A stretch of DNA of 64,000 bases from Dictyostelium discoideum. Lineage: Eukaryota. Below, in pieces: positions 45,601-48,600 of the stretch; the first letter of the stretch is position 1, and the number at the start of each line of letters is the position of its first letter. The stretch is from contig CM000155.2 in assembly GCA_000004695.1 (NCBI GenBank), positions 224,001 to 288,000 of the forward strand, written 5' to 3'. Position numbers and translations under genes: made by a program. The notes under the pieces were generated by a model. That model was not told the DNA's origin. It searched no databases and worked only from the letters and a program-made list of their open reading frames with translations.

Positions 45601-48600
45601 TTCAATTACTTACTGAACCATTATTAATTTCAAACAATCATGATTGTTCACTTTTCTTTTTACCATATCCACCAACTGATATTCAATTTTCTTTTCAAAG
45701 TGAAAATGGTAGATTCAATATGGATCTTGTTATAGATTCAATAGAAAAACAAAAACTATCTAGACATATTCAAGTTTCATTATTATCTCAAATACCAAAA
45801 TCAACTGAATTCATAAGATCCATATTGAATAATAGTGAACCTGATTCAATTTTAGTTTGTAGACAAACATTTCAATCTTATTCAATTTCACCACTAGAGT
45901 ATGGTTTAGAAAAAGGAATTTTAATTTCAAATGATTGTTCTGGTGCTTTATTAAAATTATTCAATGGTTTAATTTCATCCTATGATGGTATTAGTAGTAG
46001 TAGTAATAATAATGAATATGCAAAAATGCATCCAACAATAATTTTAAATTTCATAAATAATTTAAGATTACTTCAAATTTTAGATTCATCATTAGTTTCA
46101 AATGGTTGTAAATTAATATTAATTCAATTGTTTACGTCAATTTTAGAATATTCAAAATATAATATATTAACAGATACAGATCTATTATTACAAAATCAAC
46201 AACAACAACTAATGATATCAACTACTGGTAGAATTGAATGGTGTCGTGATATGCAAACTATAATTGCTCAAGCGCCACAAACTATTAAAGCTATTGGTAT
46301 TTCAAATTTCTCTTTTTATATTAAAAAAATAATTGATTATGAAAGAGAAAGATTAACTAATAATAACAACAATAATCAAGTCGGTGGTTATTCATTAAGA
46401 TCATATATCAATTTAACTCAAATGTTATTATCACCATGTATTAAAAGAATTGAACGTTCAAAAATTTGGAACACTTTAAATTATCAAGAATTATTTGAAT
46501 TATTAAAGAAAACAATTGATAATGAAATTAATGAAAAAGTTAAACAACGTCCATTTGATAAAATTTGGGAAACATTTCAATCACCAATTAATCAATTCCC
46601 ATTAGAAAATGATCAATTAGATGATATTAAATCAATTTATATTGAAATTGATAAATATTCAAATAATAAATTAAAATCAATGACTAATCAATCATTAATT
46701 ATTCATTGTAAATCAATTTCAGATGAAATTAAAAATTTGAAATCAAATAATAATAATAATAATAATGATTTATTAAATATTAAAAATAATCAATTTAAAA
46801 AATTATTTATTAAATTATTAAGTGGATTAAGATGGTTAATTTATAATGAATTTGGAACTTATCCATATAGTACTCAAGTTTGTTGTGTTATTGGTTTATT
46901 ATTATATAATAAAAATTCAAAAGAACAAAGAGGTAGAATTGCACAAGTACTTACTGGTGAAGGTAAATCAACTATTGTAGCATTGCTAGCATCTTATTGT
47001 GCTATTTTAGGTAGAACAATTGATATTATAACAACATCGGAATATTTAGCACAAAGAGATTTCATAAAGTTTGAAGGTTTCTTTAAATCACTTGGTATTA
47101 GTTGTTCACATATTTGTTACCAACATCCAACACCACAAGTATTTAATGCTCAAATCCTATTTGGAACCAATACAAACTTTGAATTTGCATTGCTAGGTGA
47201 TAAACTAAATGATTCTAAATTATTATTTACAAATGGTTTACCACGTGAAAAAGATTTAGTTATAGTTGATGAAGTTGATAGTTTATTTATGGATTCAGCA
47301 TTAAATTCAGCTAGGATGGCAATTTCTTCAAATGATTATCATGGATTTATTTATCAACCAATTTCAAATTATGTAAAAACTACAATTGTACAATCAAATT
47401 CATGGTCATTAATTGAACAAATAAAAGATATTGAAGATAATAAAAATGATCAAGATAATGGTGATAATTTATTAATTGATTATCAATATCATATTAATTC
47501 AATTTTAATGATAATTAAAAATTCAATTAAAGATTTACCATGTAATGATAAATCAAAAGATTTAATTAGTAAATGGGTATCCTGTCTTGGTAATCAAAGA
47601 ATTAAAAAAATATTAAATCTTGCCATTAAATCATTTACTTTAAAAGAAGGTTTTGATTATGTAATTATGTATGAATCATCAAATCATTTAAATGATTCTT
47701 CAACTACAACCGCCAATAACAGTCCAACTACTGTTGCAACTGTTGTAATCGTAGATAAAGATAATACTGGTAGATTAATGAATGGTTCAAGATATTCCGA
47801 TGGTTTACATGAATTTATTGAAGTTAAACATGGTTTTCAACCAAATCCAGAATCATTAACTGCAGCTGCAATTTCTCATCCATCTTTCTTTGCACAATAT
47901 AATGTTGTATTTGGCTTAACTGGTACTTGTGGTGAAGATTCAGAAAGAAGTGAACTATCATTGGTTTATGATGTTGATTCATTTAATGTTCCAAGTTATC
48001 AACCATCGAAACGTATTAAAAAACCTTCGAAAATCTATTCAACCATTCAAGATTATCAAAATAGTATAATTGATGAAATTAAAGAAATGCAATCACTATC
48101 TAGACCAATTCTATTACTAGTTCCAACTATTAATGATTCAGAGGAGTTTACTCAATTACTACAATCAAATTCTATAAAATCACAACTATTAAATGAAATG
48201 CAACAACAAGATGAGGAATTTATAATTACAAAAGCTGGTGAATGTGGTGTTGTGACCGTTGCAACAAATACTGCTGGTCGTGGTACTGATATTAAATTAA
48301 CAGCAGAAGCTTTAGAAAATGGTGGTTTACATGTTATCTTTGCATTTTATCCTGCAAATTTAAGAGTTGAATGTCAAGGTTTAGGTAGATCAGGCCGTCA
48401 AGGTCAAAATGGTTCATGTAGAATTATTGTTTGTAAAGAATCATTAGATTTAGAATATAAGAAAATTTTAAATTTACCTAAAATTAATAAAATTAAAGAA
48501 ATTGATGATATTGATACTATGGGAGATCTTGAAAATGATGATGATGATGATGAATTATCAGTTTTAAATAATCATAGAAGTAAAAAATGTTCTTCACTTT

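Follow-up and report, generated by a model that had tools for sequence, protein, structure and literature searches.

A giant Dictyostelium protein with a SecA-like motor appears to be the fused form of a two-gene module of protist-associated bacteria

Non-canonical SecA_DEAD motors, devoid of the standard C-terminal domains of SecA and coexisting with a normal SecA, have been described in association with very large bacterial proteins: SecA-like domains are found in giant genes of Omnitrophota (West-Roberts et al. 2023, bioRxiv 10.1101/2023.11.21.568195) and in giant actinobacterial toxins (Kaur et al. 2021, PMC8195603), and secondary SecA_DEAD proteins are linked to type I secretion genes (Kamneva et al. 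2015, PMC4452313). In Amoebophilus asiaticus, an amoeba endosymbiont, the large effectors APD1 and APD2 carry C-terminal 'SecA-like helicase-related' domains, preceded by an N-terminal domain that is conserved (Zhang et al. 2012, PMC3482391). For a SecA DEAD-like protein of Legionella, an affinity to eukaryotic sequences was already noted in 2014 (PMC4256840). The gene described here is located in a stretch of 64,000 nucleotides from Dictyostelium discoideum (assembly GCA_000004695.1, contig CM000155.2, positions 224,001 to 288,000 of the forward strand), indicated below as the window, to whose numbering the coordinates refer. Within it, 36921..49157 of the plus strand, stop codon included, is one unbroken open reading frame (ORF), coding for a protein of 4,078 amino acids (aa), composed of a head, a conserved N-terminal domain (N-domain), ankyrin repeats and a SecA-like module.

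By its sequence matches, this giant protein is the fused form of a bacterial module, in which an N-domain/ankyrin giant is paired with a SecA-like ATPase. The presence of a SecA-family domain in dictyostelids is already known from public annotation, as is that of SecA-like domains in large effectors; what appears to be new is the correspondence of the whole giant to a conserved bacterial two-gene module, the N-domain family with its seemingly new fold, and the probable direction and unit of transfer. Among the described systems, APD1 and APD2 resemble the window protein, having a SecA-like ATPase at the C-terminus of large effectors behind a conserved N-terminal domain; according to their descriptions they are set apart by this latter domain, as the N-domain of the window protein belongs to a different, unnamed family. 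The Omnitrophota, actinobacterial and type I secretion-linked motors differ in their partner domains, in their host lineages and in the self-export role proposed for them, and none of them is eukaryotic.

All the diagnostic motifs of the SecA motor were found in order where an earlier inspection of the letters alone, indicated here as the sequence-only reading, had placed them (Table 1). The Pfam model SecA_DEAD (PF07517), named there as the way to tell SecA from a generic superfamily 2 (SF2) resemblance, gives a significant match at aa 3254-3678 (E=1.4e-53, 182.5 bits, cut-off 24.6), and P-loop_SecA (PF21090) matches aa 3696-3796 (E=3.5e-24). Solved SecA and SecA2 chains match the motor at E=7e-58 to 3e-32 in a search of PDB sequences. 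The NCBIfam SecA and SecA2 models score 166-273 bits, compared with 17-22 bits for the DEAD-box RNA helicase models; all of these SecA and SecA2 scores are far under the family cut-offs (725-1,493), the best one being 273 bits against a cut-off of 862. A profile-profile alignment (hhalign) of the SecA-like family with canonical SecA covers SecA residues 12-548 with E=2.5e-91: it starts with SecA residue 12, paired with aa 3229, and extends over the DYV(I/V)K...TGR...GLHxxxExKxG segment, where the preprotein cross-linking domain (PPXD) ends. In a 50-sequence alignment of SecA-like proteins, window included, the Walker A, DEVD, TGT, motif V and arginine-finger residues are invariant; all catalytic motifs are intact, as the sequence-only reading had pointed out for the Walker motifs and the arginine finger. 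Since the SecA models far outscore the helicase models and solved SecA chains match, the resemblance is SecA-specific rather than generic, and the motor, as judged from these comparisons, is a true SecA-family ATPase. A weak Helicase_C match is also given by Pfam. A marginal match of 17 bits to the DpdF helicase, from a library of anti-phage defence models, was rejected.

The insertion seen by the sequence-only reading, estimated at about 250 aa and placed between the two nucleotide-binding domains (NBD1 and NBD2), is present: about 215 aa, between DEVDS and GLTGT, occupy the PPXD position, as stated there, but strictly this is an insertion inside NBD1. SecA_PP_bind (PF01043), proposed in the same reading as a check for the PPXD clamp, matches in part: aa 3607-3634 align (E=7e-6) with profile positions 84-110 of 110 alone, and this similarity sits at the C-terminal edge of the insertion and just past it. 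By sequence, a PPXD would be recognisable in its C-terminal third only; the remaining two-thirds are replaced, in the structural model presented below, by a helical bundle. SecA_SW (PF07516, comprising helical scaffold, wing and IRA1) and SEC-C (PF02810) were not matched anywhere in the giant protein by Pfam. Canonical SecA and SecA2 share with the window motor the two-lobed DEAD motor, every catalytic motif, the N-terminal helix, a long helix following NBD2, predicted in the window protein, and the insertion at the PPXD position, with its conserved DYV(I/V)K...GR...GLHxxxExKxG segment. They differ in sequence (about 30% identity and 240-273 bits, to be compared with the cut-offs of 725-1,493), in the SecA_SW and SEC-C domains, undetected in the window protein, in the helical bundle taking up two-thirds of the PPXD, and in context, the window motor being embedded in a eukaryotic protein of 4,078 aa, cytosolic and devoid of a SecYEG partner.

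Homologues of the motor were searched with aa 3190-3900. The top match is a Dictyostelium cf. discoideum protein (58% identity), followed by about 50 proteins of 580-1,230 aa (mostly 850-1,230), at 33-43% identity and about 280-430 bits. The best of them, at 36-42% identity and about 400 bits, include the Legionella clemsonensis, L. nautarum and Chlamydiales relatives of Lfa2470 of L. fallonii; Lfa2470 itself is tied to this group by its published description only. Named sources are L. clemsonensis, L. nautarum, Rhabdochlamydia, Chlamydiales and gammaproteobacterial metagenome-assembled genomes (MAGs); most top matches are unnamed metagenome sequences. True SecA proteins reach only about 230 bits, with 30% identity. 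Neither PF07516 nor PF02810 is found in any of the about 50 SecA-like proteins, and in a neighbour-joining tree of 106 motor sequences they form, with the window motor, a clade that all 100 bootstrap replicates keep apart from canonical SecA. The sequence-only reading, which had taken SecA as the source, holds for the family, not for SecA proper: the motor seems to derive from a distinct, paralogous SecA-like clade, in agreement with the scores below the NCBIfam cut-offs. The retrieved relatives of Lfa2470 also share with the window motor a C-terminal tryptophan motif; Legionella and Chlamydiales proteins differ in being stand-alone, with a length of 900-1,230 aa, and in adjoining a separate giant ankyrin gene. 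Upstream of the motor, a single BLAST alignment to a bacterial SecA-like protein reaches back to aa 2836. A profile of the bacterial pre-motor helical regions (300-450 aa) gives a colinear match of 14 bits with high bias when filters are off, and no match in the window protein with default filters.

A second, motor-only paralogue is found in Dictyostelium cf. discoideum (GCA_054859205.1, locus 10245-12390). It matches window aa 3301-4074 with 57% identity, without any counterpart of the N-domain or of the ankyrin region; Ty3-like retroelement genes are found nearby, and a frame change close to its 3' end could be an intron or a frameshift. In the motor tree, 100% of replicates join it to the window sequence, which points to a later duplication.

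The link between the motor and the rest of the protein emerges from the bacterial genes. One bacterial homologue of the motor (P0026), with ankyrin repeats before the motor, lies on a contig which also carries nusG, rplKAJL and rpoBC; the gene just upstream encodes a 1,713-aa ankyrin protein, matching window aa 229-551 with 36% identity (E=2e-51). An exhaustive HMMER search with aa 225-560 returned 371 representative clusters, of which 177 reach E<=1e-30; proteins of 2,000-3,700 aa prevail, and the examples scanned are long ankyrin proteins. Word-indexed searches had been of little help: with aa 194-1100 nothing was returned, the candidate list being swamped by poly-N and poly-E tracts, and with aa 225-505 six short fragments only, so that the family emerged through HMMER and a genome scan. 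In the latter, carried out on one genome per bacterial species, the N-domain was found in 70 bacterial loci: in Chlamydiae these belong to Parachlamydiaceae, Rhabdochlamydiaceae (including a symbiont of Dictyostelium giganteum), Simkaniaceae and Protochlamydia, in Legionella to L. nautarum, L. drancourtii, L. moravica and L. worsleiensis; others are from a Coxiella MAG, a Holosporaceae bacterium, Thiotrichales and Francisella-like MAGs, Mycoavidus, Neisseriaceae MAGs and MAGs labelled Verrucomicrobia.

These 70 loci and one metagenome contig (L002), 71 in total, were searched with a profile of the SecA-like module. In 32 loci a SecA-like gene lies downstream of the N-domain gene on the same strand, often overlapping it or a few bases apart; in six it lies upstream on the same strand, in one on the opposite strand, and in three (Holosporaceae L004, L016 and L017) a single ORF, of about 3,700 aa, encodes both. 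For 21 loci the contig end is too near to tell. The remaining eight, which are informative but lack a motor gene, are all of one divergent subfamily of shorter proteins (about 950-1,050 aa). A SecA-like gene, accordingly, adjoins or is fused to the N-domain gene in 42 of the 50 informative loci, 41 times on the same strand. The fused bacterial proteins, from the Holosporaceae bacterium and from Thiotrichales/Francisella-like MAGs, feature the same order as the amoeba protein: head, N-domain, ankyrin repeats, SecA-like module. That the two halves are fused in some lineages and tightly linked in the others indicates that they work together. Since N-domain, ankyrin repeats and motor all match the bacterial gene pair, it is the whole gene, not the motor alone, that links the two kingdoms. 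The sequence-only reading had seen a motor captured, possibly by horizontal transfer, and inserted into an ankyrin scaffold. A clear bacterial link supports the transfer, but not the capture of the motor alone, as the N-domain and ankyrin parts also have bacterial homologues; the insertion is contradicted, as N-domain and ankyrins of the same protein match bacterial giants that adjoin a SecA-like gene or are fused with it.

Bacterial loci show some variation. The motor-less ones (L054, L062-L064, L066-L068 and L071, from Simkaniaceae, Neptunochlamydia and other Chlamydiales) mostly show 26-33% identity (44% in the best segment of L071) and include a broken 272-aa ORF in L068; in most of them no SecA-like gene is found inside 8-10 kb (3-4 kb in L066). 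The fused protein of the Holosporaceae bacterium 'Namur' (L004, 9287-20419, 3,710 aa) has an extra C-terminal TPR segment (aa ~3605-3709), absent from the amoeba protein. In the giants P0131, P0144 (aa ~128-218) and P0126 (aa ~116-153), an Ntox28 toxin or a class-3 lipase domain precedes the N-domain, which suggests that the bacterial giants have a variable enzymatic head. In the Rhabdochlamydiaceae symbiont of D. giganteum (NZ_OZ197277.1, 9011-20878) the module is present, with three small ORFs on the same strand between the two genes: a split ankyrin tail, an ORF common to a Chlamydiales locus (L035) and a seemingly membrane-embedded one. Such ORFs were considered as a conserved third component and rejected, being an ankyrin tail fragment and lineage-specific genes. 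Where inspected, the bacterial neighbours are ankyrin giants, not type I secretion system genes, for loci screened for N-domain and motor only; a neighbourhood coding for three type I secretion-type proteins is the mark of the secondary SecA_DEAD proteins of Kamneva et al. 2015.

The features of the giant protein and the neighbouring genes are reported in Table 1. For the N-domain (aa 225-560) no family match was found in Pfam or NCBIfam and no fold match in PDB: its fold appears to be new. Its invariant residues include His262, Asp278, Lys282 and Arg398, numbered as in the window protein. The GGC motif following the N-domain recurs, as [VIL][VIWL]GGC[GS], in 102 of the 120 giants of the family, about 240 aa (median) past the N-domain, and may mark a further small domain that is conserved, whose cysteine could be catalytic or serve in processing. 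In the ankyrin region Pfam Ank_2 matches seven stretches (E=2.6e-61), with an additional match at about aa 2509-2607. When head (aa 1-224), middle (aa 640-1120) and pre-motor region were compared by BLAST with all bacterial loci, only dictyostelid matches were obtained. No signal peptide is visible, by eye only, at the N-terminus of the giant protein.

Table 1. Position of the features of the giant protein and of the neighbouring genes in the window
Feature	Protein residues (aa)	Position	Strand	Remarks
Head	1-224			conserved among dictyostelids only; unrelated to the Ntox28 and lipase heads of bacterial giants
N-domain	225-560	37593..38600	+	motifs PFFSLHFN, LDYYMKGF, SFRI, LPPLPVRYF
GGCGF motif	1013-1017	39957..39971	+	window reads WGGCGF; between N-domain and ankyrin repeats
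Ankyrin-repeat region	~1120-2610	40278..44750	+	several arrays split by low-complexity linkers
Equivalent of SecA N-terminal helix and first part of NBD1		46605..47342	+	from hhalign, Pfam SecA_DEAD and motifs
LTGEGKST	3344-3351	46950-46973	+	Walker A
YLAQRD		47043-47060	+	
DEVDS		47268-47282	+	Walker B
Insertion at PPXD position	~3475-3611	47343..47753	+	five helices and a beta-hairpin in the model
Rest of NBD1 and complete NBD2		47754..48455	+	contains GLTGT, ATNTAGRGTDI and GLGRSGRQG
DGLHEFIEVKHG		47799-47834	+	conserved motif after the PPXD-position insertion
GLTGT		47913-47927	+	
ATNTAGRGTDI		48261-48293	+	
GLGRSGRQG		48378-48404	+	arginine finger
Predicted 53-residue helix	3874-3926	48540..48698	+	straight after NBD2; similar to the long helix in the helical scaffold of SecA
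C-terminal helical bundle		48702..49154	+	split by a poly-N tract (aa 3940-3961)
QQEWAQFF		48969-48992	+	inside the C-terminal helical bundle; family-specific, nearly invariant Trp
CorA family member		2725-4203		neighbouring gene
Nup98-96		16579-22409		neighbouring gene
CSN8/PSMD8/eIF3K family member		35277-36068		neighbouring gene
SRP72		51731-53035	-	neighbouring gene
USP5-like deubiquitinase		59860-61935		neighbouring gene

An AlphaFold model of aa 3190-4078, built with the 50-sequence alignment of the clade, is of good confidence, with a pLDDT of 83.5 and a pTM of 0.85. When the model is compared with PDB by Foldseek, the top 36 matches are all SecA or SecA2 (E=3e-31 to 8e-20), and the TM-score, normalised to the target, is up to 0.59-0.69 for SecA bound to SecY; extra residues of the model also superpose on SecA2. 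The C-terminal domains had been declared absent by the sequence-only reading. Wing and zinc finger, unmatched by any model, are indeed read as gone; the scaffold probably is not, since a scaffold-like helix of 53 residues is predicted after NBD2, possibly a remote structural remnant of the SecA scaffold, though its family signature is absent. In the C-terminal region, the tryptophan at alignment position W831 is conserved in at least 90% of the 50 SecA-like sequences; the QQEWAQFF motif of the window sequence aligns with EEWAIFF in a bacterial homologue (P0003) and is kept in Legionella, other bacteria and Acytostelium.

The giant gene is native eukaryotic DNA, kept across four dictyostelid genera, as indicated by its uniform base composition, in-frame poly-N tracts, housekeeping neighbours and colinear orthologues. 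GC content is 0.25 in the N-domain, 0.26 in the motor and 0.23 in both the complete ORF and the window (range 0.23-0.26); poly-N tracts run in frame within the motor module (e.g. aa 3940-3961), and the flanking genes are eukaryotic housekeeping genes. A stop-free run of 4,078 codons has a chance of about 3e-173, given a stop-codon frequency of 0.093 in the window. Polysphondylium violaceum, Acytostelium subglobosum and Heterostelium album, each of another dictyostelid genus, have colinear, full-length orthologues; that of H. album is publicly annotated as 'Preprotein translocase secA subunit'. Across these orthologues the N-domain (47-53% identity) and the motor (40-44%) are best conserved, the linkers less so (24-35%).

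As to the rest of the window, the Nup98-96 gene reads as two ORFs, the first with FG repeats and the autopeptidase domain, the second with the Nup96 domain, and its FG-repeat part explains a local GC peak of 0.43 at 16-18 kb. A 919-aa ORF at 11528-14287, consisting mostly of poly-N, poly-Q and repeated HSPHMP units and with no Pfam family, coincides with a strongly negative GC skew (-0.57) at 12-14 kb.

Trees of the two halves, both built by neighbour-joining, point to a single origin of the whole gene. The dictyostelid sequences are monophyletic, with a support of 100% for the N-domain and of 99% for the motor. Whichever half is compared, the smallest distance to a bacterial sequence is that to the fused Holosporaceae protein, and the fused P0127 comes second. 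When the motor tree is rooted on canonical SecA, dictyostelids are placed outside the whole set of bacterial SecA-like sequences in only 6 of 100 replicates, and the only eukaryotes, among the matches whose source names were checked, form that one monophyletic dictyostelid group. Monophyly, the same nearest fused protein, the few basal replicates and the broad bacterial distribution favour a single transfer from bacterium to amoeba: the whole gene was probably acquired once, already fused, from an amoeba-associated bacterium, before Dictyostelia diversified.

The best explanation, held with moderate confidence, is that the dictyostelid gene is a copy of a module common in protist-dwelling bacteria, and its motor a machine part working with no channel. 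The steps that we infer are, in order of decreasing confidence, the transfer, a channel-free joint machine and a polypeptide clamp. The fused gene would have passed once from an amoeba-associated bacterium to the ancestor of Dictyostelia, and then have been retained. In a cytosol free of SecYEG, the motor would not serve a membrane translocon, but would form a joint machine with the N-domain/ankyrin half. As an ATP-driven polypeptide clamp, finally, it might grip, unfold or thread clients, recruited by the ankyrin arrays or by the N-domain. To our knowledge, dictyostelids have no plastid and no SecYEG facing the cytosol; the maintenance of the fused protein in such a cytosol, with intact catalytic residues, argues against a translocon motor. 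The SecA-specific features kept (PPXD-position insertion, GLHxxxExKxG element, scaffold-like helix) argue for a polypeptide clamp: a SecYEG-independent clamp or remodeller is our best guess for the motor.

Several points weigh against this explanation. Trees are neighbour-joining only, deep nodes within the SecA-like clade are weakly supported, and the direction of transfer rests mainly on distribution; Lfa2470 of L. fallonii is listed as acquired from eukaryotes (Gomez-Valero et al. 2014, PMC4256840, Table 5). The literature on any member of the family was found to contain passing mentions only, and no biochemical or genetic data. A SecA-like polypeptide path in the motor is plausible from the model, but similarity of the C-terminal region is not supported: its 220 aa, compared by hhalign with SecA scaffold, wing and two-helix finger, give a non-significant E=0.5, in an alignment which is colinear and pairs both Trp motifs, so that no claim is made for a diverged scaffold, wing or two-helix finger. 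Bacterial giants, in view of their toxin or lipase heads, could equally be secreted cargo, and the motor their dedicated exporter, in which case the function in amoebae would be a later invention.

That the gene is no gene of the amoeba at all, being due to bacterial contamination, chimeric assembly or a dead relic, was considered, as the closest homologues are bacterial; no support was found for it, and its probability is negligible. The GC content, uniform at 0.23-0.26, and the in-frame poly-N tracts inside the motor module, the intact 4,078-codon ORF, with its chance of about 3e-173, the position between Nup98-96 and the CSN8-family gene on one side and SRP72 and the USP5-like gene on the other, and colinear orthologues in independent dictyostelid assemblies are all against it: contamination, chimeric assembly and decaying relic are excluded. 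The doubt raised by the sequence-only reading about a contaminant or a chimera is settled by the same features, the motor being contiguous with AT-rich, poly-N-containing coding sequence. The gene could also have travelled in reverse, being born in Amoebozoa, taken up by intracellular bacteria as a eukaryote-like effector and then spread among them. The listing of Lfa2470 [SecA DEAD-like] among eukaryote-to-Legionella transfers (Gomez-Valero et al. 2014, PMC4256840), the typically eukaryotic nature of ankyrin repeats and the poorly resolved position of dictyostelids inside the SecA-like clade speak for this course, which is nonetheless judged unlikely: the sister group of the clade is bacterial SecA, members span Chlamydiota, Gamma-, Alpha- and Betaproteobacteria and Verrucomicrobia-labelled MAGs, the sole eukaryotes checked being one dictyostelid group, dictyostelids are basal to bacteria in 6% of replicates only, and toxin heads of bacterial type, such as Ntox28, are found on the bacterial versions. 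A direction opposite to that published for Lfa2470 is more likely.

As for function, the main alternative is that the bacterial SecA-like protein is devoted to exporting or unfolding its giant neighbour, in a way comparable to SecA2 or to the self-export suggested for giant proteins, the amoeba copy being neofunctionalised or decaying. Tight linkage to a giant, probably secreted, partner is in line with this, as is the export of their own proteins proposed for the SecA-like domains of giant toxins (PMC8195603) and of Omnitrophota giants (bioRxiv 10.1101/2023.11.21.568195). An export motor is held to be rather unlikely, because four dictyostelid genera have the fused protein, and the motor, with intact catalytic residues, is one of the parts conserved best: a motor kept in a cytosol free of SecYEG must have a translocon-independent activity. 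Also against it are the lack of wing, zinc finger and the sequence signature of the SecY-contacting two-helix finger, and the presence of the module in bacteria with different secretion systems: Chlamydiae secrete effectors by a type III secretion system, Legionellales by a type IVB one. An SF2 helicase or translocase acting on nucleic acids, and not on polypeptides, would fit the weak Helicase_C match, yet it is very unlikely: SecA models score more than 10-fold above helicase models, the SecA-specific insertion, GLHxxxExKxG element and post-NBD2 helix are retained, and the partner domains are protein-binding ankyrin repeats. The channel-free polypeptide machine may also be put in a broader setting. 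Tentatively, and with some doubt, giant and SecA-like ATPase could make up an unrecognised two-part effector machine of protist-infecting bacteria, unfolding or threading host proteins in the eukaryotic cytosol by a SecA-derived motor with no channel, of which amoebae would have captured the fused version. Such a machine would perhaps extend over Chlamydiae, Legionellales, Holosporales and others. Amoebae would then have kept the fused version for hundreds of millions of years, conceivably as a counter-measure to the same bacteria.

SecA is the textbook case of a motor bound to one membrane channel: here, a version of it is found intact in a eukaryotic cytosol with no such channel, which would mean that the SecA scaffold has a second use, independent of the translocon. 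For relatives of Legionella and environmental Chlamydiae, a widespread candidate effector module is defined, and the direction of gene transfer published for Legionella and its host is probably to be reversed. Dictyostelium, genetically tractable and a standard host of Legionella, carries the fused form, so that its function may be directly tested.

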